A stretch of 64,000 nt of DNA. It comes from Amphiscolops sp. MND2022. Its lineage: Eukaryota. Under the pieces are notes generated by a model. That model was not told the origin of the DNA. It saw nothing but the letters and a program-made list of their open reading frames with translations, and did no database searches. Location: contig OZ076409.1 of NCBI GenBank assembly GCA_964187785.1, positions 60,824,001 through 60,888,000 on the forward strand, in the 5' to 3' direction. Made by a program: the position numbers and the translations under genes. Position 1 is the stretch's first letter. Each line of letters starts with the position of its first letter. Positions 4,200 to 32,724 of this stretch are shown piece after piece.

Positions 4200-5718
4200 T
4201 GTAAAAATGTAAGCTATGAAATTAGGGACTTGAACACAATTCAATAGAACTGGAAACAGTCCTTCTTGATCAGGAGATTTTGCCTGAGGAAAGCGATGCG
4301 AAATTTACCAGTGAGCCGAACCAGTTGAAAGAAAGTCATTGAGTTTAGTTAAAACAGCAAAACCTAACGGTACACAGGCTTGGAATCTTTAGCAAGTCTG
4401 TTCAAAAAGTTGTGAACGTCCTCGTATTCATCAACTTTTGAATAAGTTAACAAACTTTAGAATGAATTCACAAGAACGTATGCGCGATTTTTTGTTGACA
4501 GCTGAAGAACTTCAGCTTAATGTAACCGATGTTGAAAAAAACGATAGTGATCAGATGCTATAATCGGTAATCTTGAAAGGTTTGCTGAACAGTTTTGCAA
4601 GTTTCGTAACTGTTTTCATGTTTTCGCAAAAAGCTAAATCATTTGCTGATCTAAAACGAGATCTTTCGAATTTCGATAGTGATAGCTGCTGCGGTCAAAC
4701 CGACCAAGGATCAAGTTCACATTTCACTAAAGACGTGAAATGCTTCAAGTGAGGTAAAAATTGGCCACCGACAAAGTGAATGCAGAGTAAAAGTGTCTGC
4801 CATATTGTGTTACGAATGTGGTGAAAAAAGTCACAAGGCGAATGATTGCCTCAAAATGAAAAAGAGGTCAAAAACAGGAGCTCTGCGTGAGACGGCTCAA
4901 AACAAACGTTTTTACACGAAGCGAAATGAGAGTAATCGAACTGCTGAAAAACAAGGTTTTTCGTTTCATACTAGTCAAGCACATTCGACGGGTGAGAACA
5001 TAGAACTTTTGATAGACAGTGGCTGCACGAGTCACATAGTAATAGTCGCTGAATTGTTCAGCGACATGGACGTTTCAAAAATGGGTAAAATTCAAAGTGC
5101 GAACGGAACTGAATCCAGTATTGAGGGTAGAAGATCCGTTCGTTTTTTCGGCAAAAGACAATCAAGGCCAAGATCAAATCTTGGAACTTGAAGTATCGTT
5201 GAACGTTCCCCAATACACAAAAAAATTAGTTTCGATAAAGAAACTGAAGAAACAAAATGCCAGCGTTCATTTGACGCAAACCCTCGCATAGTTCACGATG
5301 ATAGATGTTTTTCGTTAAAGTGCGAAAATAACTTATGTTAATGCCGCGACTGCAAGTCTCCAATTATGGCATGAAATACTTGCTCACAATAACAAAATTG
5401 ATGTTCGAAATTTGGGCAGCCCCAAGTAACACAGAAAACGCCAAGCTGTTACCGATAAGTCTTCAAGTAGCAACTGCAGTTGAAAAACCTTTAGACATAG
5501 TGCACGTAGATATATCGCTAGTGAACACGACGTCGATAGATGACTTCAAGTACGCTCTAGGGTTCGTTGATAGCTTCAGCATACTCGGTGCTGTTCATCT
5601 TCTAAGCACAAGAGCCGAAGTTGGAGCGAAGCGTTTGAGGTTTATAGCTGAGCTTGGAAAACCTCACAAGATGGTAACTGATAATTCTGAAGTGTTCAAA
5701 TCTGGAAATTTCACGGAC
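4200..5718 (+). mobile_element. Decayed Ty1/copia retrotransposon, 5' part (gag, zinc knuckles, protease, N-half of integrase)
   Basis: Gag-like PRIHQLLNKLTNFRMNSQERMRDFL...SVILKGL (~4420-4590). Knuckle CYECGEKSHKANDC. Protease LLIDSGCTSHI. Integrase KPLDIVHVDI...YALGFVDSFS...MVTDNSEVFKSGNFTD. Contains stops and frameshifts; start coordinate approximate. Confidence 0.9.
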
Positions 5719-7225
5719 CATTACAGTGGGGTAACCGGCAACGAAAATGCAGATTTTACTCGTTGTGCGGCTCGGAAAATGATGGACATGAATGAATGTA
5801 TGGGCCAAAAATGCCCATTCGTTTCGCAGCCAAAACTGTTGCCTATTGATTTCCGAGGAAGCACAAGCTACGTATTGAGTTTCTTTGCAGGAGCGATGGC
5901 TTTAATTGCCCATGCATACTCGTTGATGAGAGTAAATTGGGCAAGTAATTCCATCGCTTGCTCAAAGAATTTCAAGATTTAGATAGATCTGCCACTCGCT
6001 TCGGCCAATTCAATACACTGCTCTGACATGGAAGTGTCTCAATATTTATCTACACATGCAGATTTTCAGTGTTCAGTTTTTGGTTTATCAAATTAATTCA
6101 GTTAAAATTAATTTAGTTATCAAATTAAATTCTTAATTTTTTTTGACTAAGAAATATCAGCTCAACTATTATTTTCCCAGTATTTTAGGCGGGACAAATA
6201 AAATTGGCAATGACGAAAATCTTCGTTCCGAAGCCGATATCTGCAGGAATATAACCCTAATAATTTTTTCGTTCCGGCCAATCACTGCAAGATTATTATC
6301 GTGATAAATTTTAGTTTACTTTATTTTAATACTGTTTAATACTTAACTATTCTTTTCTTTTGTATATAATGGCAATTATGATCGGGCAATTATGATAATT
6401 ACAAATATTTTGATGTATTATGATGTGTAGGTATATTATGATGTGTTAGTATGTAATTTTGATGTATTTCATTTTTTTGGAACTTATTAAATCAGTATTC
6501 TGTGAATCGTTTTTGTTTTGGGGCGAAAGAACAGTATAGTTGATATATAATACGAGTTTAAGTTTTTTCAATCATAACAAAAAATTGTTTGATAGTTGTA
6601 CACTTACTACAGAAACAACTTTATTCAACTATTCACCTTGATTGATATATATGGTTGTTTGATATTTATTAATTTAATTGGTATCCTGTGAATCGTCATT
6701 GATTTATTTATTGACAATTAATCTAATCATCAAAAATCAGGATTCTTTGTTTTGGGCAAAAGAACAGTATAGTTGATATATAAAATGAGTTTAGGTTTTT
6801 TCAATCATAACAAAACAATTGATTTTTTCATATTTATTAATTGAGTTGGTATCCTGTGAAACGTCATTGATTTATTTATTGAGAATTGATCAAATGATTG
6901 TTCTGATATTTACCATTTTTTCAAAGTGTGAACGTTCTTATCAGTTGTTAAAGTCAACGCTCCAAGAAGTGGAATGTTACTAAATGTTCAAAGTAATTTC
7001 ACTTCCATTTTAGTGATTTAAGTGCACAAGTAAATCAGTAAGATTGTTGTAATACGGGAGCAAAAGTTTATTTGTTTTTCTGTTGATCAAACTACATGTA
7101 ATCTTGATGAACGAAACCGAATACTCGCTTCTGATTGGACGAAATTCTTTCGTCGCATATTCCGATGAGGTCATATTGATACTGTGCGTGTAAAAGTTAG
7201 TCATTTGTTTTCAATTGTCATTGCC

Positions 7226-8313
7226 ATGTTAAAAACGTTACTTTTACGGATCCGGAAGCTGGACATTGAACTAGACGACTTACCGGACCATTTGAAACAG
7301 GTTAGAGTTAATCAGTTGATTTATTAACTTTCAGGGTTGGCTTTTTAATACTTTGGTTTTAATAATTGCTTTCAATATTTTTTCTTGATAAACGTTGGTG
7401 ATTTCCTAAATAACATAACAAACAACAAAAATAAAATTAGTTTCAAAACACAAAATTGAAATGAGTTTCACTAAACATACAAATGAATGCAAATAACATA
7501 AAAACAAAATTAGTGTCAAAGAACATAAAAATAAAACCGAATACCCGGTAAAACGATCGAACTCAGAAAATTTTATCTGTAATTTCCACACTTTTTTCAG
7601 TGAATCTTTTGAATTGTGTATGCTTTTGACCACTGATATTTTCTCATTAACAATTTTATTTTTATGTTTAGTGAAACCCATTTCATTTTAATGTTATTTG
7701 AAACTAATTTTGTTTTTATGTTATTTGCTCTTATGTTATTTGGGAATTCACCGATATTTCTTAGTCAAAAAAAATTAAATATAATGCTTATATAGAAATA
7801 CACTGTTATTCTAATCTCAAAAGTTTTGCTCATTTGGTTGCCAGAAATTCGGTTACGGATATCAAAACGTGCCCATGGATTCCCGAGTTTTGGAAGGCCT
7901 TGTCGGTTACCCCACTTTAATGTAAATTTGGCAAATTTGTTGTTTTTTTCAGCCCAAATTTAGGCCAAGCCTTCATCATGATAGAGAAGCCAGTACCGAA
8001 GCAGTTCTTCAAGAACACCGCGGCGTTTCGACTGACAGAGATGAGCCAACCGTCTGTCAGAGTTAGTTTTTAACATGAACTTTTTGAAATCTTACATGTG
8101 TCTATGTTTTGACTAATGCCCGCAGTTCATCAACCACTATTTGAACACATGAATAATAGGAAAACTAAATCCGAATGTTTCACGTTTGACTACGTTGCTG
8201 CAGGAAACGAGGAAGTTGAGACCGATGATGAACAAGTCACTCTCCAGGAGCACATTTTGACTGATAGGGATCAAATCAGCCTCCTCAACGATCCGACCGT
8301 CTGCCCCAGTTAG
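7226..8313 (+). CDS. Possible small 3-exon gene (7226-7300, 7953-8061, 8204-8313), unknown product
   Basis: ATG plus phase-compatible GT/AG sites. Exons 2 and 3 are paralogous (VLQEHRGVSTDRD..PTVCQ vs TLQEHILTDRD..PTVCP). No recognisable domain. Confidence 0.3.
7391..7758. mobile_element. AT-rich MITE-like inverted repeat element
   Basis: ggtgatttcctaaataacataa...aaaattagtttcaaa at the left end is the inverted copy of tttgaaactaatttt...ttatgttatttgggaattcacc at the right end. Confidence 0.55.
7883..7922. repeat. Internal copy of the right terminus of the giant transposon
   Basis: ccgagttttggaaggccttgtcggttaccccactttaatg matches 24620-24659 with 2 mismatches. Confidence 0.9.
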
Positions 8314-8424
8314 TTCTTTTATATGATTCCTTGAGAGTGTTAATCGATATCTGCTTTTTGGAATATCCATTGGCATATTTTGAATTCAAAATTGACAAAG
8401 AAAACAAAACCCGAAGATAATATA

Positions 8425-8661
8425 CAGTAGTGATATTATTGAGAGCATCAAAAGGCAAATCTCAAAATCGAATATCTCTAAAACGGCAGTGGTTTATGAA
8501 AACTTATAAAAATAAACGTATTCTAGATTTTTATCTAGTTTACAAATATGTTTGTTTGAAGATTTTTTCGAAAATACATGTTTTGGGATGACTTTGAAGT
8601 TTTTTTTTCACCTGCCGCAGACTTTGAAGCGGCTTTGTTGCTTTTAAAAATATCACCACTG
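8425..8661. mobile_element. MITE with TA TSD (Tc1/mariner-type), copy 1
   Basis: TA|CAGTAGTGATATT...AATATCACCACTG|TA; related to 18511-18690. Confidence 0.7.
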
Positions 8662-8750
8662 TATTTGACTAGATGACAATGACTAATATTCCAACAAAAA
8701 TTATATAAAAACTGATAAGTTAAAAACAAAGTTCGAGTTTATCAATGGTT

Positions 8751-11166
8751 TTACTCGGCATTACCGCCGAAAATTCTTTTGGCTTCGGGGTCCATGTAAT
8801 CAAACATCAGCTGCTCCAGGGGTTCAATTTTCCGCTTTGCAATAAGTAGCACGTAACGCGGATTATTTTTCAAGTATGTACATTTCAATTCGACCAGTTT
8901 CATGTTACAAGCTGGGTTGGTCTTTCCACCATCAAAGGTACTTGAGTAATTGCACAATCGAGCAAGGCACCTTCTGCCATCGTTGTGGATGGGGCATATT
9001 TCCGAGGTTGCATCAATAATTCTTCCCGGCCTTGTTTTAACCTCGATGCAGTATTCTGGCTTGCGGTTCTCTGGGTCCAGACTGCAGTAGTAGTCGACGT
9101 TGTTCGTGTTTTCTTCTACATGTCCGTGGTAGTCAAAAATAACGTCATCCTTGTTAAATGGTTTGGTCGCGATTATTCCTCGACCCATTGTAGGATAGAC
9201 AACATCGCAGACGCCTGGCCAGAATTGGTTTTCGCATCTATCTTTCAAGTCATCTTGGAAGTAAGGGGTATTGCAAAGTCTCCATTCTAGATTTGGATTG
9301 AATGCTTTTTTGCGCGAACTTTGTCGAGATCTTGATACCCCAGACATTCTAGAAGAAGCATCCATGACTCTCTTTACATCTGTGAAGTGGGGCCAGTTGA
9401 CCAAGTTTGCAAAATCGATTATTCTCTCTCTTTCTTTCGCAGGGTCAGCTAGTGATGTAGGGTAGTGGCTCTTGTATTCGGCCGCCCTAATATCTGCTCT
9501 TTGATGCCTAAGTGCTTGAATTCTTTTTTCGACTACTTTCATGACCGTTCTGTCATCGTAATGTCCGCTGGGCCTCAAATGTTTTTTGACTTCCATCATC
9601 AGGTAAGATTCAGACCAAAATTCTTCTTCTGCTGAACATTTTGAAAGTGTCATCAGTTTGACAGTTCTTTCCAATCTGTCCATTTCACGTTCGGCTGGGT
9701 TTCTTGTCAAGTCGGAAAACTAGAACACGCAGATAGTTATTGAAATAAGCGAAAACTGCAAAAGGAAGATGTTTTTGATTTTCCAACTTGTGATTATGTC
9801 TTATGGTTACTATCGACTAATACAAATCAAACTGAGTCAAGTAATTCTTATCAAACAGTATTTGATTAGTTACCTGTTCAATCCGATTTCTTATGTTCCG
9901 CACTTTGAATTGTGTTTTTCCCCAGCTGTTGACAAAGAATGGCTCCGTCATGACGTAATATGGTGGTATCCCTTGACTGGGTGACTGCATGAACCTTTTT
10001 TTCTGGTCGATACCTTCAGGTTTTATGAAGTACGGTCGTACAGCTTCAAAATATATTAACATTGCTTCTCCAACAATGTGAGGAATTCTGAAGCTGTCCA
10101 AGTACCCAGCTTCATCTTCAATTTGCAAGACAAACAAGTCACTTGAGTTAGAACTTCTATTGTGCTGAATTTGAGGGACCATTTGTAAAACGGCATGAGT
10201 TGTAATGCTCAAAATTTTGCGATCTCTACACTTTGGAATAGAAAATTCCAGCAAATAAGCAATGAGGTCCCCAAACAAATTGGTTTTGTCAATGCTGGTT
10301 AGAGATTTTGCGAATTTGAATTGCTTCATTATGTCATAAAGGTCTGACAAGAGTCGCGCTTCAACAGTTGTGCATAATGTTAGGTGCACTGGGGTAATTT
10401 CTCGCAAATTTTTCTCATAGTTTTTGGGAACACATCGTTTACTTTTTGGGCCATGGTTTTCCTCATCATAATGGTTAAGTTTCCGCTTGTTCGCTATCTC
10501 CTGTTGGCATCTTTCCATGTTTGCCAAGGTGTCGTTGCAAGAACGGCTCAGCTGACTTGCCATGATATCACTCGGAGTTTGGCTCAGCTGACTTGCCGCG
10601 ATATCACTTGAAGAACGGCTCAGTTGGCTTGCCATGATGTCACTCGGAGTGTGGCTCGTACTGTCACTTGGGGTGTGGCTCCGTTGATTCGTCGTACTGT
10701 CACTCGGTGTGTGGCTCAGTTGATTCGTCGTACTGTCACTTGGAGTGTGGCTCAGTTGATTCGTCGTACTGTCATTCGGAGTGTGGTTCAGTTGATTTGC
10801 AGTGTTGATTAACAGAGGTGTCATTTGATTTGCAGCAAGTTGAGCTTGTACCATTATCGAGACGTCCGAAGGGCTATCTTCATAATTCACACCTTCTATA
10901 TTAGAGATTTGTGAAAATATCCTTTGTTCAACTTGGGTGAAACTTGGCCAGCTTTTAGATGACACACTGGGTGATCCATACAACTGTTGTGTCGAACTAG
11001 ATTGATCCAAGGGAGTACTCATGTAGTATGCAAAGTTGCTTTCATTCGGTTTAAATGGAGTCGAAAATCTTTCAAATGTTTCGTTTGGAGCAACAGAATT
11101 TGTCACAGCCGGGCTAGTCCCCAAGACAGTGTAAGAGAGAGATTTCTCATGTTGAGGAGGGTTCAT
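8751..11166 (-). CDS. SET-domain lysine methyltransferase, SETD8/PR-Set7-like (~753 aa; exons 11166-9874 and 9719-8751)
   Basis: A phase-0 GT..AG intron (9873-9720) joins ..NRIEQ|FSDLTRNP.. in frame. SET motifs GRGIIATKPFNKDDVIFDYHG, IIDAT, LARLCNYS, LIAKRKIEPLEQLMFDY. N-terminal S/T-rich region and a possible tyrosine-recombinase-like remnant. Confidence 0.88.
10530..10800 (-). repeat. 36-bp coding tandem repeat (NQLSHTPSDSTT / SQLSRSSSDIAA)
   Basis: About 8 degenerate 12-aa units within the SET gene. Confidence 0.9.
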
Positions 11167-11781
11167 CGTTATGTAAAAGAGACTGTTTTCTAGCTACTGT
11201 TTGGATTGAATGGTGAGTGCTCAATCCTTTCCTTGAGCGATCCAAATTCGAACTAATTCAAAGACGCTTCGTCAATCAACTGTGGTATATTATAATTAAA
11301 GAAAAATGGTGATCTTCGTATTAAATAGTACATATATGATAATTATTCATTTCTGATAATGAATTATTTAATTATTGAAAAAAGTAGTACATACCGTTGG
11401 TAATAGCTTTGCGGATGTGCTATTTAGATTTGCATGAAGATGAGCTCATTTAAGGACGCTTTTCAAATCAACTGTGGTGATAATTACCTGATGACGTGCG
11501 AACCTTCAAATATCGTTTCAAAATAGGGGATAAAAACCGAAGTATGAAATAACGTAAGCTAATTGGCATAAAATGAATTGAATTTTCGCCCATCCGTTTC
11601 CGAGTGATGAAAAGCAATGAAAAAGCCATGTATTTCTGCGTTTCAAATTGCCCATGCGTTTCCAAGTCTTAAATGGCATTATCATTTTGATGATCTGTTC
11701 GGATATCTGAAATAGAATTTAAAATGTCGAATTTTTTTCAAACATGTTTTTCACCAATACTAATCGGAATATGTGTTTCAG

Positions 11782-14700
11782 AATGCCGGAGAAAATTCAG
11801 CGAAAAAGTTGCGTGCCAGAGGCACATGTACAAAGACTGGGCACCAAGGAAGAGACCTGTTGAAGAACACCAGCTGGAGTTCACCTGCATTGCACAAAAA
11901 ATTTACAGTCGGGCAAATTTTATTTGTCGCTTTTGTGGATGCGGCGAGAAAGACGGAGGACCGTTCTTTAGCTATCACAGGACCGCTCAACACTCCCTCG
12001 GAAGAACTTGCACCCTGAAAGTGTTTGAGTTGCAAAGGGAGGAATAGTACCCAGGAAATTTGTTGGAACCAACACCAGAAAACATCGAGGAATTGTGCAA
12101 GGAAAGTTCTGCTTACGATTGCCTGAAGCAAAAATACAAATCGTTTTATCTTAAAGGGGAATCCGCTGTTCTTAAAAAAAAGCCCAAAGGCAATGTGCCA
12201 GGAGAGTACAGCTGGTCGGAAAAAAGACGGCGGGAGGGGAAAGGTTATTCCCATCGAATCAAAGACCTGATTAAAATCAAAGGGACCCCAAAGAAGAAGA
12301 TCGAACACCCACGATGGCAAGCGAGGATGGATTCGAGAAGAAGAAGAGAACAGAGAAGGACGTCACGTCGGTACCGTCGAGTTCACATCGAACCAGATTC
12401 TGACAGCGATGAAGAAGCCCTCCAGGAAGAGACCTGTGAGGAAGACGAAAGTGAAGAAGAAGTAGCCACACACGTTCGCCAAGGTACAATAAAATCCTAT
12501 CGTTTTACTTATATCAATTTTTCGACATACCAGTTTGACTACTTGCCAAACGATTCCACTGATACTTATCGAAAATATTCGAAAAACATCCACAAATCTT
12601 CTCAATAACTTTATGATGATTTTGACGATTTTTGTTTCAGATTCCGACAGCAATGAAGCCCTCCAGGAGGAGACCTATGAGGAAGACGAAAGTGAAGAAG
12701 AAGTAGTCACACACTTTCCCCAAGAAGAGAACCGTCAAGAAGACGAAAGTGAAGAAGAAGTAGCCACACACGTTCGCCAAGGTACAATAAAATCGTATCG
12801 TTTTACTCATATCAATTTTTCGACATACCAGTTTGACTACTTGCCAAACGATTCCACTGATACTTATCGAAAATATTCGAAAAACATCCACAAATCTTCT
12901 CAATAACTTTTTAATGATTTTGACGATTTTTGTTTCAGATTCCGACAGCAATGAAGCCCTCCAGGAGGAGACCTATGAGGAAGACGAAAGTGAAGAAGAA
13001 GTAGTCACACACTTTCCCCAAGAAGAGAACCGTCAAGAAGACGAAAGTGAAGAAGAAGTAGCCACACACGTTCGCCAAGGTACAATAAAATCCTATCGTT
13101 TTACTCATATCAATTTTTCGACATACCAGTTTGACTACTTGCCAAACGATTCCACTGATACTTATCGAAAATATTCGAAAAACATCCACAAATCTTCTCA
13201 ATAACTTTATGATGATTTTGACGATTTTTGTTTCAGATTCCGACAGCAATGAAGCCCTCCAGGAGGAGACCTATGAGGAAGACGAAAGTGAAGAAGTAGT
13301 CACACACTTTCCCCAAGAAGAGAACCGTCAAGAAGACGAAAGTGAAGAAGAAGTAGCCACACACGTTCGCCAAGGTACAATAAAATCCTATCGTTTTACT
13401 TATATCAATTTTTCGACATACCAGTTTGACTACTTGCCAAACGATTTCACTGATACTTATCGAAAATATTCGAAAAACATCCACAAATCTTCTCAATAAC
13501 TTTATAATGATTTTGACGATTTTTGTTTCAGATTCCGACAGCAATGGAGAAGCCCTCCAAGAAGAGAACCGTCAAGAAGATGCAAGTGAAAAAGTAGCCA
13601 CACACGTTCGCCAAGGTATAATAAAATCCTATTGTTTTTCCTATATCAATTTTTCTACACCAATTTGTGAACTACTTGTCAAACGATTCCACTGATACTT
13701 ATCGAAAATATCCGAAAAACATCCAATCTTCTCTAACATTATAATGATTTTGACGATTTTTGTTTCAGATTCCGACAGCAATGAAGCTCTCCAAGAAGAG
13801 AACCGTCAAGAAGATGAAAGTGAAAAAGTAGCCACACACGTTCGCCAAGGTACAATAAAATCCTATTGTTTTTCCTATATCAATTTTTCTACACCAATTT
13901 GTGAACTACTTGTCAAACGATTCCACTGATACTTATCGAAAATATCCGAAAAACATCCAATCTTCTCAATAACTTTATAATGATTTTGACGATTTTTGTT
14001 TCAGATTCTGACAGCAATGGAGAAGCCCTCCAAGAAGAGAACCGTCAAGAAGATGCAAGTGAAAAAGTAGCCACACACGTTCGCCAAGGTATAATAAAAT
14101 CCTATTGTTTTTCCTATATCAATTTTTCTACACCAATTTGTGAACTACTTGTCAAACGATTCCACTGATACTTATCGAAAATATCCGAAAAACATCCAAT
14201 CTTCTCTAACATTATAATGATTTTGACGATTTTTGTTTCAGATTCCGACAGCAATGAAGCTCTCCAAGAAGAGAACCGTCAAGAATTTGAAAGTGAAAAA
14301 GTAGCCACACACGTTCGCCAAGGTACAATAAAATCCTATTGTTTTACCTATATCAATTTTTCTACACCAATTTGACTACTTGTCAAACGATTCCACTGAT
14401 ACTTATCGAAAATATCCGAAAAACATCCAATCTTCTCTAACTTTATTATGATTTTGACGATTTTTGTTTCAGATTCCGACAGCAATGAAGCCCTCCAAGA
14501 AGAGAACCGTCAAGAAGATGAAAGTGAAAAAGTAGCCACACACGTTCGCCAAGGTACAATAAAATCCTATTGTTTTACCTATATCATTTTTTCTACACCA
14601 ATTTGACTACTTGTCAAACGATTCCACTGATACTTATCGAAAATATCCGAAAAACATCCAATCTTCTCTAACTTTATTATGATTTTGACGACTTTTGTTT

Positions 14701-17332
14701 CAGATTCTGACAACGATGAAGAAGCCCTCCAGGAAGAGATCTGTGAGGAAGACGAAAGTGAAAAAGAAGTAGCCACACACGTTCGCCAAGGTACAATAAA
14801 ATCCTATTGTTTTACCTATATCATTTTTTCTACACCAATTTGACTACTTGTCAAACGATTCCACTGATACTTATCGAAAATATCCGAAAAACATCCAATC
14901 TTCTCTAAGTTTATTATTGTTTTGACGATTTTTGTTTCAGATTCTGACAACGATGAAGAAGCCCTCCAGGAAGAGACCTGTGAGGAAGACGAAAGTGAAG
15001 AAGAAGTAGCCACACACGTTCGCCAAGGTACAATAAAATCCTATCGTTTTACTTATATCAATTTTTGTACACCAATTTGCCTACTTGTCAAACGATTCCA
15101 CTGATACTTATCGAGAATATTCGAAAAACATCCACAAATCTCAATAATTTTATAATGATTTTGACGATTTTTGTTTCAGATTCCGACAGCAATGAAGCCC
15201 TTCAGGAAGAGACCTGTGAGGAAGACGAAAGTGAAGAAGAAGTAGCCACACACGTTCGCCAAGGTACAATAAAATTCAGTTTTCATAAAATATTGTTTCT
15301 CAGTTATTTGTTAAAAGAGATGAAAGGTAAAAAGCAAAAAAAATCAAAAAATCTTTACTTTTAAAAATAAAATCGGATTGAGTTAATTTTTAAAAAAATC
15401 GGATTTTGTTCCATCCATGTGTTCAAGGCAGTTTTACTAATACTTGTGCATATGTGTTTTTAGACACGACTTCGACTTGTTTACCTATATCAATATTACG
15501 TATCGAAAATATTCGACAAACAACCAATCATCTCAATAACGTTAAATTGATTTTGACGATGTTTGTTTCAGATTCTGACAGCAATGAAGAATCCCTCCAG
15601 GAAGAGAACCGTGAGGAAGACGAAAGTGAAGAAGTAGCCACACACAATCCCCAAGGTACAATAAAATCCTATTGTTTTACCTATATCAAAATTTCTACAT
15701 ACCAATTTTACTACTTGCCAAACGAATCCACTGATACTCATCAAAAGTATTCGAAAAACATCTACCAATCATTTAAAAAACTTTATTATGATATTGACAA
15801 TTTTCGTTTCAGATTCCAACAGCTACGAACAGGTTCAAGCAGAAGATGAAGAAGTTTCTCTGGTTGCATTTGTGGATGAAGCAGAGCATCATGAGCTGCT
15901 GGATGTAATCAGAGAATCTTCCGGGTCCGAGATGCGAGTTTGCTGCACCAATGTTTCCAGCAGCGAAATAGAGGAGGAGCTGCAGCGGAAAAGAGCCTGT
16001 ATTGTTCGAGGACATATGGATGGTATGAAATTGCCCAACATCAACTTTGGAGCGCGAAGAAACATCTTCGAAGACTGTCTACACGCAGAAGATGTACAAT
16101 TATCTGTCCGAATGTACAAACCTGTCAGTGTTCGTTTTTGGCTTCGTCTTTTTAACTTCACCAATGAAAACCGAACATTTAAAAAATATTAGGGTTTTTA
16201 TATTTTAAAACCAAAATTGTAGATCTTCGAAGTGTATTCTTTTTTCATATACAACACATGTCTATTTCAGCTGCAAAAACTCCTGTGTTTGACACTCTCA
16301 GGAAAAGATTTTGTAAATGCCATTGAGTTTGGAGCTATGAGCGGCCCAATGAATGTCTTTGATCTTAGCTCCAGTCTCACAAAGAACTTGCATTTCGATG
16401 TACCAACGGCAGTTAAAGAACTTTCAGTGTCTCATTTATTCAATTTTGAGCTGGAGCAAAATTGCTATATTCTTCTCAGTCAAAAAGGTTCCATTACACC
16501 TTGGCATGTTGACTACACGAATACCAGCGTCTTTTACCATCTTCTTCACGGTAAAAAAGAGTTTTTCATGATTCCTGGAACAGTTCGAAACCAAGAAATT
16601 CTCGAGAATTGGTGCATTGAGGCAACAAAACAAAATGTTTTCCTACCAAGTGACACCCACCTCCAAAGTCAAGTGTTTAAAGTGACGATAACAGGCGGCG
16701 AGTCAATGATCATGCCAGCAGGCATGATACATATGGTCAGAACCTGTGCGGACAGCGTGGCCGTGGGATTCAATTTTCTCACCATCTGTGATCTAGGTAA
16801 TTTTGAAATTCAGTTTTCATATAATTGTTTCTCAGTTGTTTGTTAGAAGAGATAAAAGGTAAAAAGCAAAAAAATCGAAAAAATCTTCATTTTTAAAATT
16901 AAAATCGGATTAAGTTAATTTCTCAAAAAAATTCGGGTTTTACTTCTTCTATGGGTTCGAGGCAGTTTTACTAATGCTTGTGCATATTTGTTTTTAGACA
17001 CGACTTTGACTGTTTACCAGAGGGAACGGGACAATGATGAACCTCTTGAGAAATGTTTCCCACATTTCTTATCGTTAATGACGAAAGTTATTCTAGAGAG
17101 TGCCATTGGGAACTGTAGGCTAATGAAATGGGAGCTTCTGGCCAAAGCACTACATGTCCTCAGCTTCAATTCCAAAAATGACAGCCGATCCAAGAGCAAT
17201 CGACGAAAATTTGTGCAAACTATCAACCGGTACATGTCTCTCAATTTCCCAAACAGGAACATATCATTAACTCACCTATTTCAAATTGTTGACAAAAAAC
17301 TCGGTCGAAACACTTTTTGGTCTCTTGATTGA
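11782..17332 (+). CDS. JmjC histone demethylase, KDM2/KDM7 (JHDM1/PHF8)-like, multi-exon; one in-frame TAG at 12045-12047; first exon not located
   Basis: Exon 11782-12483 (C/H zinc-finger-like, then basic tract), 12 acidic phase-1 exons, then 15813-16123, 16271-16796 and 16998-17332, all with compatible GT/AG phases. JmjC motifs SITPWHVDYTNTSVFYHLLHGKKEFFMIP and MPAGMIHMVRTCADSVAVGFNFL (H-x-D...H triad and 2-oxoglutarate-binding T/K intact). Post-JmjC helix VYQRERD...CFPHF. Confidence 0.85.
12397..15830 (+). repeat. Tandem exon+intron array (period ~298 bp, then ~231-239 bp) inside the JmjC gene
   Basis: Acceptors tttcag|ATTC precede exon starts at 12641, 12939, 13237, 13532, 13769, 14005, 14242, 14473, 14704, 14941, 15180, 15572 and 15813. 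Donors are CAAG|gtacaa/gtataa. Exon peptide DSDSNEALQEE..EDESEEEVATHVRQ. Confidence 0.95.
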
Positions 17333-17733
17333 TTAGTTCGTTGAAAACCATTTTCGAGATGAAATTTTTTGTTTTACATATTCCTAACCTTTATTATTTT
17401 ATTTCATTGTATTGATATATATTATTATTAAATCTCGAAACTTGTTTTCAGCGAAGTATTTCAGCACTTGATGCAATTTCGCAGTTTACTGTAGTAATAC
17501 TTTAGAATTTTGAATTCCAGTTCTTGGTCTTTGAAAGATTTGGTTTTATTCTTTCTTTTCGGTTTTTACTTAGTATTTTGCGCTGCTACTTTTTGGTACG
17601 TTTCAATTTTGAATTTGTTTAAAACAATTCGAATGATTCAATTAAATTTTGACAATAAAAACAGGTAAAAATAATTTATTATTGTTCGAATCAAAGTTTT
17701 CACGATTTATCAATTATGATTATCAAATGATTC

Positions 17734-20700
17734 TCAGTCTGATGAGTCTGAGGATGATTCATCGTGTTCTTTCTGAGCGTCATTCATTTTTTCTTGTTCG
17801 CGCTTCTTCAGCATTTCTCGTCGTTTACGAAGTACCGATGTTATAGCTGAAGTTGTGTTTTGTAGTTCGGGATTCCTCTGAAGAAGGAAAATTTTGCGAT
17901 GATCACGAACAGAAGTTGATGGGATGTCTGGCCCTGGTTTGAACGCAAAAGACTCCACATCCAAAATTGTTGAAGTTTCGATACTTTTCAAAATATAGTC
18001 AACGGATAGAAACGTAAGTCCACGACTGGCCAAGTGTCGTAAAACGTAACTGGTTCGACTTGGTTCATTTAGTTTCCTTTTTTTGCATTTTCCTTTGGCC
18101 ATAACTTCTGTCACTTGTGGCAAAGAATCACACGACGTTGTTGCACTAATAAGATCTGTGTCATTTTGGAGAACCACGTAAATGTGTGGCAACTTGGAGT
18201 GTCTGGAGAGGAGAGTATTCAATGCTGCTCGTTCTAGAACTTTCCCTCCCGCTTTTTTGATAACTTTTTTGAGACACTCAGCGGGTCCAAGAGTTTTTCC
18301 ATCTTGGTTTTCATGTTGAATTCGTTGCTCTTTATTGAATTTCCCGTGCAGAAAGAATCTCGATCCTGGAGCAAACGGAATATTGTTTAGTTCTGTGAAA
18401 ACAATTGGTTATATACCGAACTTCGAATATGTAACAACAGGTTTCTAAGGTGGTCCTTCCATTGCCGAACGTGCTTATTGCCGTATAATTCTAAGACGGT
18501 TTTGCATGTACAGTAGTGAGATTATCAAAAACTTAGTATTTTCGAAAACGCCTATTTTTACAGCGTGGTTTCATTGAGACTTTAATATAATTTCTCAATC
18601 AAAACATATCAAGTCCTTCAGTCAAATGCTTTTTGATAGATATTTGATTCTAAAATTTGCCTTTTGTTGCTTTTAATAATATCACTACTGTATTCTATTT
18701 TCTTTGCTACGATCGTTCTGAACAGGTATGTAATTGCATCATTCAAAACTCACTGTTAAGCGAAGAACTAATTGCAAATAATAAGTTGAAAACATAAAAA
18801 TAAGTAGATTGAGATTGGATTTCTCTCTCCGCCAGAGAGAATTCCAATCTCAATCTACTCACTAATTGCCACAGTTGTTGAATGCGCGGTCGTCACCGGC
18901 AATCGACATCTATGGCAAGTAATACCAGCCAATGGCTACCACACACAATACCAGACACAATACCAGCCACTGGTTACCGAAGGCTGCACCAACAGCGGCG
19001 CAGAGAAGCGAACCTGTATACCAAGAGCGAACGAGCGGCGGAACGACGGAACGTCGCACGAAGTAACCACTACGCCAGTGGTACTTGGAATCTGTTGCTG
19101 TTTTGAGGAAGTTTTTCATCCGAGTAACTTAGGACTAATATTTGTCAACGTGTTGCGGTGCAATACAAATATTCAGCAAAACTCAAGTCAAACATTTGTT
19201 CAACGATCCACTACATTTATTTCGGAGTCGCAAGAAAAGCAAAATTCACACTATATTGTTGGTTTATCCAACTAAATTTCGCTAAATTTATACCACTTAG
19301 GTTTCATAACCAAAAAAGTTGGACGTGGGCATATAGGTACAAAAAAAATCCTTACCCAAGAAAAGGCGGGACTTCTCTCGAACTTTTCCAACGGGAATGA
19401 TGGCTTTCTCAGTTGGTCCCAGGGAGTCTAAAAAAGATAGGTTCACCTCTATGGGTTCATTGAAAAGCCGTTGATGGCAAAGTGAGAGCTGTTCGTCGAT
19501 TGTGCCTTCCAAAGACGAAAACCGGAGACCAGAACAGAAAGTGAAAAACATTTCGAGAAACATGGGGTCGGCGTGTCGAACTGTCCCTCCCCCTCGCATG
19601 GTCTTTTGCTGAAAGTCTCTATGGACATGATGATTTGATTTTTCGGGGCCTTCGCACAGGTGGTTAAAGGGTGATTCAATGTAGCCTCCTTCTAACAGCT
19701 GGGGAATCAGGCACAGTTTCAGTCTGTACGGTGTCAAACCTAGTTTTACATCGAACAGTACAATCGAAATGTGATAGTGGATTTCTGACCAGTATTTATA
19801 GTCGGAAAAGTCCTGTTCTTCGAATTTCTTCCTCGTCCTCATCAGCACGGTAAGCTGATTTAGTGACTTTCTCCAGAGTTCAGCTGCAACCAAAAGTTTC
19901 ATTTGACATGGGCTTTCGATATTTTCGAATGAATTGGGATGAAGATTTTTCAACACATTCATGCTTGCACTTTTTGTACCCGACAAGGCTCCAACAGTCT
20001 TGTTCTCGGAAAAAACTCCTTCGAACAGTTCATGCTGAACACCAGCCTCAGCAAGTTCGTACATATCAGCAATGCCAGTGATAGCTTCTCTGCCACTAAG
20101 GGAAATGGGAGCACATTTTTTGTTGCGTTTGTCAATGTCAAATTCGAAGCCAGGCTCTTTCCAACCTCTCTCGGTCAAATTGCGCTGAAAATTTTCCCTA
20201 ATATAATCAACTGTAGCTGAGTCATCTTCAGATTGGAGAATTTTCAACTCCATGAACTTTCTAATGTCTCCCTCGACACACCTTGTTATTGCATGAGTGC
20301 CGTCAGGACAAACGCATCTGATGTCTGGCAAAAACGTCAAACTTTCATGAGGAATGGTGGTTCGAAATGGTAGGCGAACATCACCTCGATGTCCACTTTT
20401 TTCGTGCACGGTTTCTGGTTTAACTGAATCGTCATTCCCAAGATACATCTGCAATTTTGATGGATTTTCTTCACTCTCCATGTGATCAACAGAGGTTCCA
20501 ATGAGAAGGCGATTTAGGAATGGTTGATCTCCACTGTATGTTAAAAGGACTCCGGCGTCATGGAGTTGTTTCGTCTGCTGGTAAAGCCAAGAGGAATCTT
20601 GCTCACCTAGTTGTAGGTACCCGACATTTTGCTCTAGCAACCAACGACCGTCGTGACCTGTAAACACGTATTGTAAAGTGTGCGAAGCTAACCTAGAGCT

Positions 20701-21700
20701 AAATTATATTTAAAGATTCAGCAGGACAAAATAGCAGAACATACCTTGGAAAACAGCAAAAGAGAAGAGTGCATCTGATGACTGATTGCTGATAGATGTT
20801 CCTTCGAGAAAACGGAAGGCCATTCGAGTTTGATCCTTTTTCCCTATTTGAACACCATCTCCCCAAATATCAACTTTCAGACCTTGCAAATCAGTTCTTC
20901 CTTTGAACAGAATGAATGTCATGACTTTGATAGCACGTACAAGATCAATTCTGAATCCCGAGAAAGTGTTTTTTGGTTTGAATAGGGATATAAACTTTGA
21001 AATCATCGGTTTTGACATCTCTTTGATCGCCGTATAACCAGGAATTAGTTGTTTTTGACCCAGTCCATCGACATGGAAAGTTTTTTTCAGCGTGTTGATC
21101 ATATTTATCCAACTACCAGTTTTAGTACAGATAAATATGTCTGACTTCAGCTTTTCGTACGATAAATAGTTTGAAAAAACACCCTTAACCAGAGCCTTGG
21201 CTTCAAATTGATGCAGAGAGGTCTTCTGGGCCTTAGTATGAATCCGCTTTTGTTCTGTAGCTGCTAATGTTGCGAGAATTGTATGCATCTTCTGACTGAA
21301 ACCTGATTCAGGTTTAGAAAACTGCTCCACTGGGATTGTTGGCATTGGAAGTGGATTGACAAAAGGTTGTGAGTCGGGAATTAGCTGCGGCGTATTTGGG
21401 AAAAAATAGGACACGTATCTTCTTCGTAATTGTGTCCATGGAAACCCACTTTGTAAACCACGAACAATTATTATTTGCAATATTCCAATTGCAACAAAGC
21501 AAGTTTTTTTTGTTTATTACACAATCTTCGAGTTTTAATTCAGTTCCTTCAATTACTATTTCGATCGCGCTTTTCAGTTTTCGAGATTTTTCTCTTATAA
21601 TATGCCCAGCAAAAACATCCAAAATTTTAGCATCCACAAAACTTTTTCCATCAATTGTTTCAGTGTAATCGTGCAGAAGCTTCTCGGGGTGTATTGTCAT
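17734..21700 (-). CDS. DDE transposase (RAG1/Transib/CMC-like) with C-terminal BRCT domain (~962 aa; exons 21700-20745, 20657-19356, 18365-17734; one frameshift in the T8 run at 21504-21511)
   Basis: Ordered motifs KVDIWGDG (D1), YSGDQPFL (D2), PDGTHAITR (DxxH), LTPY and LCEGPEKSNH (E), comparable with RAG1 SCDG / GYDEK / DALH / ITNY / SEGNESGNK. Spliced LFLG|SRFFLHGKF...LKKVIKKAGGKV...LSVDYILKSI is BRCT-like. Both introns are phase 1 and in frame. Confidence 0.78.
18511..18690. mobile_element. MITE with TA TSD, copy 2, in transposase intron 2
   Basis: TA|CAGTAGTGAGATTAT...ATAATATCACTACTG|TA; its right ~70 bp match the left end of 8425-8661 in inverted orientation. Confidence 0.7.
18803..18859. 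repeat. Near-perfect hairpin (25/26-bp stem, CCGCC loop)
   Basis: agtagattgagattggatttctctct-ccgcc-agagagaattccaatctcaatctact. Confidence 0.9.
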
Positions 21701-21789
21701 CCTGATTGTCGTACGTCGAAAGTTATATTGGAAGTTATTCTAGTAGTTGTTGTTTTTTCAAAAGCGTATTGACACTTTATCGTTTCCAC

Positions 21790-22150
21790 ACTAGCGTTTC
21801 CATTCTTGAAATGCGTCTGCTGGTTCGCAAAGCGTTTGACAAAAAATTATAAAATTATCGTATTACGTTATTGATGTTATTGATTATATCGGAAATAAAT
21901 CGAGTAATTGTAGTTTTAGCGTGTTCACACTCACGTGGATTTTGAAATGCGTCTGCTTGATCGAAAAGCGTTTGACAAAATATTATAAAATTATCGTATT
22001 ACGTTATTGATGTTATTGATTATATCGGAAATAAATCGAGTAATTGTAGTTTTAGCGTGCTCACACTCACGTGGATTTTGAAATGCGTCTGCTTGATCGA
22101 AAAGCGTTTGACAAAAAATTATAAATTTATCGTGCTACGTTTTGGATGTT
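21790..22150. repeat. 136-bp tandem repeat (~2.6 copies) between the divergent transposase and Tudor genes
   Basis: atgcgtctg at 21811, 21947 and 22083 with near-identical intervening sequence; the motif recurs near 22188 and 22210. Confidence 0.9.
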
Positions 22151-22409
22151 CCGTGCAAAAGTGTCTGGGGGTTTATTGTCATTTAAAATGCGTCTGACAA
22201 TTAATTAATATGCGTCTGACATTTAAAAATCATCTTATGCGTATGTAACGATTTGAGTCGATCAAACTCACTTGATAATCATTTGTCCCGATAACGATTT
22301 TATTTGCTCAAACTTGCTTGATAAACATTAGTGGCAAATGCAATACTGAAAATACTCGTTTACGAAATTAAATTTCTTGAAAAATAAAGCACTAATTTCA
22401 TTAATTGAA

Positions 22410-23978
22410 ATGGATTTCATCAGTGTTTTTGATATGAAAGAGCAAGTTCAAGTTTTGGATCCTGCAACAAAAATTTGGGAAGATGCTCGCATCATTGGGT
22501 TTGAAGGATCATTTGGAATCCGAGTGAAATACCTCAATTGGCCCGATAAACTTGTGAAGCGATTCGGATCAGACAGAATTGAAGTGTCCCCCAACACACC
22601 CCAAAATTGCTGGCCGGTTAGAAAATGTATAGTATTACAAGATGTCCGCGGTCGCCGGAAATCCAAGAAGCCAGCAGAAACCGTTTTTGACATCCCCGAC
22701 CCAAGAAAGCGCCAACTAGGGGACAGAATCTTTTTCACTGGGACATCACGGAAATCACCAGCGGACATTCCTAGTTTGGAAGAGGTTAGAAAAGATGCCG
22801 AGGAGTCGAAGCTGCTGAACTCGGGTTATGTTGTCATGAATGACCCATTCCAGCAAAATATGGCTGTTTCCTTCGACGGGCGCACAAAGGACATCCAGTT
22901 CATCGACTATGAACAAATTCGTCCGAAGAACTGGACTCATCCTGACACGAGGCAGCCTTCAGAGTTTGATTCGGAGCCCGAAGATGTCCAACCATCGCGG
23001 CAAAAAAAGAGAGTAGTAGAAACAGATGCAGAACCAGAACCCACTATAACCACTCCCAGACAGAAAATTGATATTGCCGCATATATTGCGAGTCTTGCCG
23101 AGAAAGACGAACTTCTGGACATTGTACCCTGCGAAAATGGTATTGCATCAGCAGGTAAATGATCAATTTGATTATTACTAGTCTAACTTCTACGGTACTA
23201 AAAAAAATCAAACAAAAAAACTGAAACCAAGTTTTTTGCCACGAGCGTCCTCTCGAAAAATTTACATGCTTATAGAAACTTTGTCGCATAAATCTTTCTC
23301 AAGTGGTTAATAAATTATTATTACTAAATGAAACTGAATATTCGCATTCTGTTATCAGGTGACCACGTTACGATAAACATTAGGAGCACGGTCTTCACGA
23401 TGAAATTGGAGAAGATATGGTTCGACGTGGAGATGAAGAAGGCCATGGCGAAACTGGTCGATGAAGAAGACAGATGCTACTCCATCACTTACCCAGCTGT
23501 AAAGCTAGTGTTGACAGAAGCAAACTACATGAAGCAGAAAGCTCTGGACTTGTCCGCAGCTTGTTCACCTGTGAATAGAGCTTTTCATTACCTGTCAGCG
23601 CTGAAACCTTTGGTCGGGATATCCCAGTCCAAACGCACAATGATGAATCAGGACATTTGCTTGGTTGACGAAATTTCCAAGAATATCTTTTTAATGGGTT
23701 CTGGACACCAAGTCAAATTTCATATAGATCCTGACTCAGAAAAGTTCCACAAAAATGCAGAATGGGACAGTACCCTAGGCCGACAATGGGATATGCTCCC
23801 ACCAATCTTCCCTAAAACTTTCTGCCACATTATCAAAAGCCTAAAATTTTCAATTAACAACGATTTTCTGCTGAAAACTGTGCGAGTATCTATCGATTGT
23901 TTCCAGGACAATTTAAATGGCGATGACGAATATCGTCGTTCCGCAGCCAATAATTGCAGAAGTCAGTTTAGTTTTTAA
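22410..23978 (+). CDS. Tudor/chromo-barrel (Royal family) domain protein (~454 aa; exons 22410-23154, 23359-23978)
   Basis: N-terminal FDMKEQVQVLDPATKIWEDARIIGFEGSFGIRVKYLNWP fits the F-x-x-x-x-x-V-x-V-x-D...W-x-x-A-x-I...V-x-Y-x-x-W barrel pattern. A phase-1 GT..AG intron joins ASA-G-DHV in frame. Confidence 0.68.
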
Positions 23979-24659
23979 ATTTATTCATTTTTTGTATCCA
24001 TTGCCATAACAATTGTGATATCTTTTCCATTATGTTTCTTAATTGAATCAGTCTCTTGTGAATCATTTTGTTTTCGATTTGGGGCAAAAGAACAGTAGTG
24101 GAGCGACATTGTAATAATTGACAACAATAACATTAAACAATTGAGTCAAACAAAAAGTAATGAGGATTAAATTGTTCAAAAAGACAAGCCCCCGGAAAGA
24201 TCTTATGATACCAATCTAATCTTCTTGTAATCTCCTAATCTTCCTATTGATTGATATATAGTATGAGTTTAAGCTTATTCAATTATATTAAATGAGAGTT
24301 GTTCGATTTAAGGTGGAATGATGAGAAGCATGGAAGCTTGATAATCATTATTCAAATTTATTTCGAAAAAAAGTACCTGGGAAGGGTTTACTAAAATTCT
24401 GATAATCGGCAAATCCTTATCTTTAGTTGATTAGGTATATCTCGGACATTTTTTGATATGTATTCAAAGTTTCTATCAAATTGAAAGGCCACACTTGGTG
24501 GGAAACGAATGGACAGATTATGTTCAACAATTAGTTGACTTCGCCCATGCGTTTCCGAGATTTTCAGTTATGAACAACAAAACTCGCCCATGCATTCCCG
24601 AGTTTTTGCCCAACATTTTCCGAGTTTTGGAAGGCCTTGCCGGTTACCCCACTGTAATG

Positions 24660-26790
24660 ACATTTGTTCAAAGTAACTAATTGATCAGGAATTTACTAGT
24701 GAAGGGTTGAAGGAACCATAGGGGCGATGGCTAGGTGTCTGTTGAAAACAGCATAATAACCTGAATCTTTTTGGCCGTTTGCATACCGAGGAGCTTTCCA
24801 TATAAAAAAACCGATGCCTTCACTCTGGTCATGGCACAACATCGTTCGGAAAATATTCTAACAAGACACCAGATGTGTCTCATTTTCGAGTTTTTGGGCG
24901 TCAAGCATTCATCTACTTAGAAAAACCAAAGCGAAACAGGTTTGAAAGTAGGGCTTTCGAAGGTTTTTTACTCGACTATAGCAACAATTCTAAGTCATTT
25001 TGATCGGATTTATTGGTGGCGCAGAGCTCATCACGATAAGTAGCCGCAATATTAAAATCATCGGGACTAGTTCCCCTGGTAAAACACACTTCGCAAACAC
25101 TGAAAGTGAAAAAGATTTTTTCTTTGAACCCAACGAAAGGGGTAGTGAAAAAGAGTTGTAGAACGCGAAATCAGTCGCCAAAACAAACTTGATTAGAGAT
25201 GTGAGTGAGTTCCAAAACGATGCTTTAAGCGGTAATCCAGAAACTTTGGTCACCGAAAGATCAGACGAGAGCATCGCACAAATTCCACCGCATAGTTCGA
25301 CTGAATATACTACGACTAGATACGGACGAAAAAGAAGCCGCCCAACAGATACACCCCAGGTACGAGCAGCAACTTGTCTTACAGTTTAGGTCTGGGTTCG
25401 ATAAAATTGAAACACTCGCATACCAGATGTTGATCAAAATTTACCGAAAAGCATTGAAGAAGCACTTTTTTCATCAGAGCGGTATCGTGCGATGAAAGCG
25501 GAATACTAATCGTTACAGAAGCTCGTTGATATGCTCGAAGGAAGAAACCTCGTAACAGGTAAATGGCATTTTGAACTTAAGCGAAATAACAAAGGGGAAG
25601 TTATTAAGCACAAAGCAATATACGTAGCTAGAGGATTCAAACAAAAACAAGGTGTCGACTACGATCAAACTTATAGTCCGACTGTTAAAATAGTAACAAT
25701 TCGAGTTTTGCTGAGTTTGGAAGTTCAAAAATAATGGTATTCAAACAGAAAAAGTTCACAAAGTCAAAACAGTTAGGCATAAAAACGCCAACTGGAACAC
25801 AGGTATAGAGGAAGAAATTTTTGTAGGTCAGCCACCAGGATTCGTTGAGGAAAATGCCAACAGGAAATGATTTGTTTGTAGATTGAAAAATTCTCTCATG
25901 GATTGAAGCAATCCGGTTGCAATTAGTTGAATGCACTTAGAGATTTTTTGTTTAGCATTCAGTTCAAGCCGAACAAGCCCTGAGGGGACGAAACGGTCAT
26001 AAGGACTTTGTAGCATGTTGGGTAGTTGAATTACTCTACTGTAGCGACGATAATAGGTTTTACGAAACGTTTGAGCAAAAAACTTTGGATCAAAGAAGTA
26101 GATGACTTGAACTGGTTCTACTGGTTCTTGGGAAAGCAAATTAGACGTGAAAAAGGCAGACTAGAAATTTGCCAAGAAACCCAAATCGAAAAATTACTTG
26201 GAAATTTTGGAATGAAAGATGCCAAAGGACTTTTCACGCCTGTTGCTGAAAAACAACAATCCAGTAAGTCAGACTGTCCTGACGAAGGCAGCCAAGAACA
26301 AAAGGAAATGAAAAATAGTTTTCGTGGAATGATTGGTTGCTTGAATTGCTTAGCGAACAAGACAAGACCTGATATACCTTTCGCTCTGGGGGCCTTAAGT
26401 TGTTACGTTCAAAAGCTATAAGTATGAAGTTCAATGGAACAGACAACGGTAGCGACTTCAACAGCTGAGCCAAAAGCATTGTCGTTCTTTCCAGCTTCTC
26501 AAGAACTGAGTTTCTACGAGGACTAGCAAACGAGAAAAAAAATATGCGGAAAAACTTACTAAGATAGATGTAGGCAATCAGGCTTGTATCGCGATAACAA
26601 AAGTTACAGTGAACTCTCAGAAAGTAAAGCAATTTGCAATCAAGTTGATTTTCATACAAAAAAAATTGCGACATTTAGATGTTAAGTTTTGTCCAGTGAA
26701 ATGATTTTTGACTTGCTAACTAAACTGTTGGCAAAAGTTAAGGTTGAAATGTTCAGCAAAAGTTTCTCCGGAAATTATATCTTGTAATCG
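24660..26790 (+). mobile_element. Same copia element, 3' part (rest of integrase, RT, RNase H), decayed
   Basis: Continues the integrase after the insertion (D-I-C-S-K-*-L-I-D-Q-E-F-T-S). RT motifs KWHFELKRN...KHKAIYVARGFKQKQGVDYDQTYSP and FRGMIGCLNCLANKTRPDIPFA. Purine tract aataggagg at ~26798. Confidence 0.9.
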
Positions 26791-29780: not shown

Positions 29781-30483
29781 TTAAAAAGACTTGTTAAGGG
29801 TTGGAGACGTACAAAATTACTTTGCATTCGCGGATAATTATCCCTAGAGTTTTCCAAGTCTCCTTTGTTGTAAGATATTAACCAAAAGCATAACTGTGAA
29901 AGACATCGGCAATATATTTACAAACCAGACGCCCGCTAAACATCGGGATATTTTCCGCTTTGTCAAAAAAATCAGACGAGAGGAAAGATTCGAACCCAAA
30001 ACCTACCCTGGTTAAAAAAATGCGTTCCTTGCAAGGATCTTGCAAGATTTTCTTTCAAGGTCTTGCAAGATAATGCATTTTTCTGCAAGACATCTTGCAA
30101 GAATCTTGCAAGAAAAAAAATTTCCTTGCAAGATTCTTCCAAGGAGAAAAATTTCGTGGAAAGTTCTCGACAATTTTTTTATTTTTTATATTCATTGTTT
30201 TTGACTTCAAGTTGACTACTGCATCGTGACTATTAGATTCTGTCACAGAACGGGGTTTACTTACTAGAGGATTCAACCACCAAAAAGATGCAAACTCTAG
30301 AAAATATCTCTAAAAGTGTGATCTTAGTGAAGTTATTTGAAAAGTAGTAGTACATTTCAGTGACGCAACATCTAAAAAACAATTTCAGAGTATCCTGAAA
30401 ATTTTTTCCAACCAGATGTGTTATGTACCTGTTGACAAGCAATTGATAAGATTAAAAGCAAATAAGAATCGTTCCGTTTCAAG

Positions 30484-30552
30484 GTAGCTTGGCCTAGCGG
30501 TAGAATACAAGGCCGGTATTCGACCGGCCTAGGTTCGATTCCCGGACAGGTA
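30484..30552 (+). ncRNA. tRNA-derived Pol III-like unit (SINE head), not a canonical tRNA
   Basis: A box TGGCCTAGCGG, B box GGTTCGATTCC, central hairpin gccggt-attcg-accggc; acceptor stem not convincing. Confidence 0.5.
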
Positions 30553-32178: not shown

Positions 32179-32724
32179 ACCCCCTCCATCAGTCTTTACT
32201 GTACTGTAGTTACGGTGTCCAGACTTCATTGTCCGGTTGAAGTTTCTACAGTAGTTTACCCGTCTTCTTGAGTTGTGTCCGGACTTAATTGTCCGGTTGA
32301 TACTCAGAAGTCTACTCCCCGTCTTTCTTCCTGCCGTTTGGACAGTGTCCAGACTTAATTGTCTGGTTGAAGTTCTTTCGGCCTTCTTCCGCCCCTTGGG
32401 CACTTAATATTGGACGAACCTTTGTCCTTTCGGGAAGAGCGTGTTTTTAAATCATCGTCTCGTTCCATGTTACTTCTTCCTGTGTCTTGTAATTACTTTT
32501 AAAAAACAAACAACCGCAAAACTACTCTACCGTTGCTGTTATCGTGAGATACAGCTCCCATCATCCAAAACACACCGTTACCGTTAACCCAAAATTTCTC
32601 CGTTCAGCTGTGTCTAAGCTTAATTGCTTGGTTGACGCTGTCGAAGAAACTGTTCCTCGATCTATTTTGAATAACACTTTCCTTACTACCTTGATTCATT
32701 CTCTAACAAAAGATCACGACAAAG

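Follow-up and report, generated by a model that had tools for sequence, protein, structure and literature searches.

The window analysed here is a 64,000-nucleotide (nt) stretch of the Amphiscolops sp. MND2022 genome (NCBI GenBank assembly GCA_964187785.1, contig OZ076409.1, positions 60,824,001 to 60,888,000 of the forward strand), and all coordinates below refer to it. It contains an 18,941-bp DNA transposon (5719..24659), which is inserted in a decayed Copia-type relic and carries a JmjC-domain gene on the plus strand. Within this gene, 12 predicted internal exons lie in tandem, at 12641-12781, 12939-13079, 13237-13374, 13532-13615, 13769-13849, 14005-14088, 14242-14322, 14473-14553, 14704-14790, 14941-15027, 15180-15263, and 15572-15655. 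They measure 141, 141, 138, 84, 81, 84, 81, 81, 87, 87, 84, and 84 nt, each a multiple of three. All 12 follow TTTCAG, start with AT, end in CAAG|GTA, and are in phase 1-1, and canonical GT...TTTCAG splice signals bound all 13 array introns. Thirteen acceptor words and 13 donor words were located in a scan: the large upstream exon terminates in a 13th unit (12397-12483), which is preceded by CCAG instead of TTTCAG, and the first JmjC-region exon begins after the 13th acceptor, at 15812.

The units fall into blocks of similar neighbors on the plus strand. Units 1 to 3 (12641..13531) have the long exons (141, 141, and 138 nt), a 57-nt internal duplication, and 157-nt introns, and are mutually 97.7 to 99% identical. 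Units 4 to 7 (13532..14472) form a higher-order dimer with a 473-bp period, in which units 4-5 are 97.9% identical to units 6-7; unit 4 is 99.6% identical to unit 6 and 97.0% identical to unit 5. The exons of units 8 to 11 (14473..15263) measure 81, 87, 87, and 84 nt. Next comes a chimeric 308-nt intron (15264..15571), which includes a copy of the gene's last intron and last-exon start (a 214-bp piece at 15272-15485, 86.6% identical to 16806-17018) and an extra acceptor at 15463 that would create a potential 192-nt alternative exon, in frame and free of stops. The edge unit, unit 12, together with the last array intron (15572..15812), is the most diverged of the array.

Each of the 13 units is free of stops in a single frame and has at least one stop in each of the other two. 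In a simulation, the frame downstream of 12048 was kept in all of 2,000 random exon-skipping patterns, and retention of any array intron introduces a stop or a frameshift. These introns are 150 to 157 nt long apart from the 308-nt one, and 8 of the 13 are not multiples of three. The original prediction, made from the DNA letters alone, had described the repeat as an exon-plus-intron unit in phase 1-1 whose frame would survive any copy number or skipping pattern, with a 473-bp dimer of copies 4-5 and 6-7, and in all of this it holds. Its period of ∼235 to 298 bp was about right; the actual periods are 231 to 298 bp, plus one of 392 bp.

The array could have originated in a single event. The 14-mer CAGATTC(T/C)(G/A)ACAGC is found twice in one and the same phase, once inside the upstream exon (12394) and once at the acceptor downstream (15810). 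A slip between the two 14-mers would duplicate the final 87 nt of the exon along with the intron, yielding a ready-made phase 1-1 exon, and one such microhomology-guided duplication is the likely origin of the array. Subsequent turnover would have proceeded by unequal crossover or conversion among the units and among the many copies of the element. Signs of turnover in the window are the blocks of similar neighbors, the dimer, the 57-nt duplication, the diverged edge unit, and the 214-bp piece copied into the 308-nt intron. Since frame safety would be a by-product of a slip of this kind, it is no proof that the exons are used. An array so formed would survive because every copy number stays in frame and because its site is a disordered spacer between a Cys/His domain and the JmjC domain.

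Other copies of the element, identified among related sequences, vary at the same place. A subfamily 88% identical to the window copy has its own tandem units (P0070 and P0136). L and ATH are present in all 13 window units, while F and RH occupy the corresponding positions in the 9 listed internal units of the subfamily (two each from P0070 and P0136, and P0087, P0098, and P0133 to P0135), as in most of its first units. These subfamily-specific residues reflect either homogenization within subfamilies or separate expansions. Unit 12 and the subfamily unit P0135 share an EES start, which suggests that the array is older than the subfamily split. In P0078 the first unit is fused to a long unit, as expected from unequal exchange, and deletions span the donor in P0072 and P0079.

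The gene around the array can be modeled from end to end. A candidate exon 1 (11434..11476, plus strand) runs from an ATG to G|GTGAT, and its joining to the acceptor at 11781 would keep the reading frame; ATG 11727 was rejected as the start, with similarity to a sister lineage beginning only at that acceptor. The large exon (11782..12483, plus strand) encodes a conserved Cys/His-rich domain, a basic patch (∼12162-12395), and the first acidic unit. The Cys/His-rich domain gave a weak C2H2 hint in Pfam (E = 2.5), and an ESM Atlas search with it returned leads at 0.89 to 0.90 only and no family. Downstream of the array, the JmjC-region exons (15813-16123, 16271-16796, and 16998-17332, plus strand) have as their borders the ends of homology in the sister lineage, which is 48% identical there, and similarity of that lineage to the large exon starts at the TTTCAG acceptor and stops at the same phase-1 donor. 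Because the stretches of similarity to the sister lineage (∼46 to 48% identical) are bounded, for both exons, by predicted splice sites, the comparison is good evidence that the ordinary introns of the gene are real; introns outside the array measure 147 and 201 nt.

The JmjC identity that had been proposed for the downstream part is confirmed by Pfam (E = 7e-10; 39.8 bits against a cut-off of 24), and 14/14 PDB sequence matches are of KDM2A, PHF8, KDM7, or PHF2 type, the best being KDM2A (E = 5e-18) and PHF8 (6e-17). In JmjC enzymes, an H-x-D...H triad binds Fe(II), and a Thr and a Lys bind 2-oxoglutarate; when aligned to KDM2A, all of these are in place. T76, H79, D81, K96, and H154 are nearly invariant in an alignment of JmjC relatives (A5), and the catalytic residues are kept in both lineages.

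The spliced gene model comprises 1,029 codons, of which the sole internal stop is an in-frame TAG upstream of the array (12045..12047, plus strand). Of 36 same-family proteins, 28 reach across this site, and every one of them has Trp there; the remaining 8 start only after it, and some of these may come from copies broken upstream. Reassignment of the TAG codon was rejected, with relatives having Trp there and the long open reading frames (ORFs) of the window using the standard code. An ORF that matches the window copy except for the TAG codon is found on 12 contigs (P0071), and the same large exon is frameshifted in several other copies (e.g., P0073 and P0063). Because TAG stands where all 28 relatives have Trp, the present copy has likely become a pseudogene, while other members of its family look intact, and the long linker protein that the original prediction assigned to it is not supported as its product.

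A split of this model, in which the exon before the array and the JmjC exons after it belong to separate transcripts, is highly improbable, as is inflation of the unit number by assembly error. No longer JmjC relative joining both parts was found, which would agree with separate transcripts, but this null result is weak since the gene calls of the collection ignore introns; there is neither a stop nor a start between the parts, and the model is open throughout except at the one TAG. Assembly error is countered by differences of 0.4 to 14% among units, too large for an echo, and by the tandem units on other contigs (P0070 and P0136).

If spliced as predicted, the units encode a linker of 420 amino acids that is 39.5% Asp or Glu (D/E), with a net charge of −139, adjoined on its N-terminal side by a 78-amino-acid basic patch of net charge +20. 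The anticipated D/E-rich character is thus evident. The array might be a selected, length-tunable module of an anti-silencing demethylase, one that would act by histone binding or DNA mimicry and by damping the basic patch, its strength being set by copy number or skipping. The charge of the linker next to the patch would suit such a module, as would the presence of acidic repeats at this position in both the window's lineage and its sister (46% identical), the retention of catalytic residues in each, the SET gene on the same element, and the absence of stops or frameshifts from 13/13 units. Yet the chance of seeing no stop among 25 single-base changes (counted by hand from a list of distinct changes among the units) is 0.31 to 0.42. 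Synonymous changes number 7 of the 25, against a neutral share of 19 to 27% (binomial P = 0.30 to 0.82), and several unit changes lose an acid: E to K twice, E to A, E to G, D to F, and E to Q.

The p-distance among units is 0.105 for exons and 0.072 for introns, so that exons are no more conserved. Between the subfamilies, the unit differs at 7/29 residues in all six proteins compared, translated intron at 4 to 9 of 41, and the N-terminal domain at 1 to 7 of 128. The two extremes for the N-terminal domain against the unit give Fisher P values of 3e-5 and 0.005; the N-terminal domain against the intron gives P = 0.003 for one tested pair and P = 0.17 for the other, and the unit against the intron gives P = 0.21. 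The N-terminal domain is conserved, and the units are without detectable amino-acid constraint. The histone-binding or DNA-mimicking role raised in the original prediction, insofar as it implies selection on the units, therefore finds no direct support in these data.

The sister lineage bears on the module in both directions. At the same position it has a different, in-exon repeat, rich in Asp and Thr, with a DTTL-type motif in 1 to 6 copies and the same donor end. Eight length classes were found in 32 of its 34 proteins, the other two stopping short of the site. The site thus appears to be a length-tolerant, acid-leaning spacer in both lineages, which fits tolerance best, although a charge-based function is possible. 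The sister repeat is short (a 26- to 63-amino-acid segment) and Thr-rich, and an unrelated in-frame repeat in another cargo gene of the transposon suggests a general proneness to repeats. With these points set against it, we regard the selected module as rather unlikely.

A different concern is that the units are pseudo-exons within one long intron, the first donor being mostly joined to the last acceptor and the satellite merely hitch-hiking on the element. The automatic frame safety of such units, the failure of exons to diverge more slowly than introns, and the donor-spanning deletions in P0072 and P0079 are all compatible with this. Nevertheless, the donor and acceptor that the original intron must have carried are present in every unit (13/13 GT and AG), and the intron sizes resemble those of the gene's other introns; with the same donor and acceptor and gene-like intron sizes, default splicing should include the units. 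Indels had been put forward as a further check, on the expectation that those in exons, but not in introns, would be multiples of three. The direction agrees: as counted from the alignments, about 3 to 4 exon indel events are all multiples of three, against three exceptions among about 6 in introns. However, the check is weak, because the events are few and the small indels of the exons fall within GAA tracts, which slip in threes anyway. Overall, pseudo-exons seem distinctly improbable.

We consider it fairly probable that the array is an exon-intron minisatellite in a transposon-borne JmjC gene, which arose by microhomology, turned over by unequal exchange, and, if spliced, encodes a tolerated acidic linker. 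The presence of the linker probably reflects tolerance, not selection on its sequence. Several observations tell against this reading. The mean pairwise pN/pS among units is 0.45, a value drawn from non-independent pairs, and it could indicate mild purifying selection. An acidic repeat in both lineages and an array in both subfamilies are what a charge-dependent function predicts. The GTACAA donors are not of the strongest type, which makes skipping plausible in place of the predicted inclusion of the exons in mRNA. Acidic tracts of Asp and Glu can fold back on basic segments or hold histone tails. Any action of this linker would most likely be exerted through charge, not sequence, with the linker either folded onto the basic patch beside it or in loose contact with histone tails.

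The transposon that carries the gene has perfect 23-bp terminal inverted repeats (TIRs) at 5719-5741 and 24637-24659, a match obtained in none of 100 shuffles, and Copia pieces flank it on both sides. Its termini are CA..TG, and a 2-bp AC duplication lies at 5717-5718 and 24660-24661 (one insertion site). A TA target duplication with CAGTG ends was rejected, given that an internal copy of the right end (7880..7922, minus strand; TIR match at 7900-7922) likewise ends in TAATG; 7880-7930 is 90% identical to 24617-24666. A 17-bp subterminal motif occurs at 7871-7887, 11588-11666, and 24543-24602 (7 matches, with 0.12 expected), twice just 5′ of the JmjC gene, and possibly marks transposase binding sites at a cargo promoter. 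Beside the internal end copy, at 7950-8340, are two small acidic segments that look like exons and resemble each other at their 3′ ends. They were rejected as remnants of the array; 179 and 43 of 500 shuffles reached their alignment scores, and tblastn gave no match.

The other cargo includes a SET-domain ORF (8751..9719, minus strand; Pfam SET E = 2.5e-08) and an orphan ORF (9817..11193, minus strand) with no Pfam match above the cut-off. The orphan ORF contains an in-frame 36-bp tandem repeat found by TRF (10545-10797), encoding a 12-amino-acid Ser/Thr unit on the minus strand. A further gene (22350..23978, plus strand) consists of two ORFs, probably two exons, likewise without a Pfam match above the cut-off; its product has what we take to be a Tudor or chromo-barrel look. 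A 136-bp tandem repeat (21776-22150) lies between the divergent transposase and orphan genes.

The spliced transposase gene (17734..21739, minus strand) encodes a C-terminal BRCT domain, and an A-run at ∼21506-21513 marks a possible frameshift or unseen intron. The BRCT domain is also fused to the transposase in relatives P0004 to P0006; further transposon families are present among relatives P0004 to P0007. The transposase cluster has 71 members at 99%. An ESM Atlas lead points to a RAG1 cluster (score, 0.94; 170/256 features), and candidate D, D, and E motifs (WGDG, SGDQPF, and EGPEKSN) were picked out by eye. The profile of the transposase alignment (A1) had 0 matches among PDB sequences. 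Two structure predictions were both poor (pLDDT of 48 and 46), and a fold search with the first gave no meaningful match, RAG1 chains appearing only at E ∼3. Six of the 14 distinct contig sizes listed for the transposase cluster (15 members listed) recur among the 36 of the JmjC exon, and in the sister lineage a transposase and a JmjC protein share a longest-contig size of 8560; from these shared sizes, the transposase and JmjC gene probably travel together. No related DNA was found in viral contigs, JGI metagenomes, or prokaryote genomes.

Elsewhere in the window, a BEL/Pao-type retrotransposon (30015-37587; 1,507-amino-acid ORF at 32707-37230) is flanked by the inverted arms, 34 bp long and perfectly matched, of a CTTGCAAGA-rich repeat. 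Taken with the Copia relic and the spliceosomal introns, a BEL/Pao element suggests that the host is an animal. A unit of ∼1,570 bp is present in five tandem copies that are 88 to 96% identical (44681-52545). Two 1,561-bp direct repeats with TGT...ACA ends (58762-60321 and 62013-63572; 98.5% identical, 1.7 kb apart) are probably the long terminal repeats of a non-autonomous element.

The array is known in kind and unusual in its youth and setting. Symmetric exons that arise by internal tandem duplication and encode disordered regions are a known class, as far as described in the part of Schad et al. (2013; PMC3632108) used here, and the literature searched on exon arrays and acidic linkers yielded only this general class. 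The array resembles it in having phase-symmetric, tandemly duplicated exons that encode a low-complexity, probably disordered segment. It differs from the class, as there described, in that the intron has been copied along with the exon at 86 to 99.6% identity and in its minisatellite-like turnover, its higher-order dimer, and its place in a transposon cargo gene. The array offers a clean, young case of symmetric exon birth from microhomology round an intron, followed by satellite-like amplification, and the dozens of copies of its host element are natural replicates in which the turnover of exon arrays can be measured.

The more interesting part is the carrier, a transposon with chromatin enzymes. 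Its JmjC product shares with KDM2/KDM7 (JHDM1, PHF8, and KDM7A) the best PDB matches, the H-x-D...H motif, and the Thr and Lys, and would be expected to work like them, with demethylase activity predicted. It differs in its orphan Cys/His N-terminal domain, its 420-amino-acid acidic linker, and its location on a transposon. It is not filed as KDM2 or KDM7 because none of the companion domains (PHD, CxxC, F-box, and LRR) was detected by Pfam on the gene's exons. The element as a whole resembles the CMCT group (EnSpm/Mirage/Chapaev/Transib) in its 5′-CA..TG-3′ ends and a duplication within the 2- to 5-bp range that the consulted part of PMC12730594 gives for the group, as well as in the RAG1-like Atlas lead and the candidate D, D, and E motifs. 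Unlike CMCT elements, it has a C-terminal BRCT domain on its transposase and SET and JmjC cargo, and the C(2)C and H(3-4)H motifs were not seen by eye at the expected places among the conserved columns of A1. Because those motifs were not seen, the element is best described as CMCT-like and unclassified, not as a CMCT member.

No description of a RAG1-like transposon with SET and JmjC genes was found in the literature searched, which excluded Repbase Reports and most subscription journals, and the text of PMC12730594 as consulted here has 0 occurrences of JmjC. It would be bolder, and in our estimation quite doubtful, to see an unclassified RAG1-like animal lineage with an anti-silencing kit of SET, JmjC, and BRCT-transposase genes and a tunable acidic linker that binds histones or is autoinhibitory, the sister lineage reaching the same design with a different repeat. 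Even so, a 19-kb transposon with a RAG1-like transposase lead that bears both SET and JmjC genes and persists in two or more lineages makes a candidate anti-silencing system of animals. Chromatin-modifying cargo is known from VANDAL elements with VANC, from SET-bearing HarbingerS and MuDR elements of Phytophthora, and from fungal TET/JBP transposons, according to the portion of PMC12730594 drawn on here. Like these, the present element is a DNA transposon with its own genes for enzymes of epigenetic marks; it differs from those covered there in joining a writer (SET) and an eraser (JmjC) in one, apparently animal, element.

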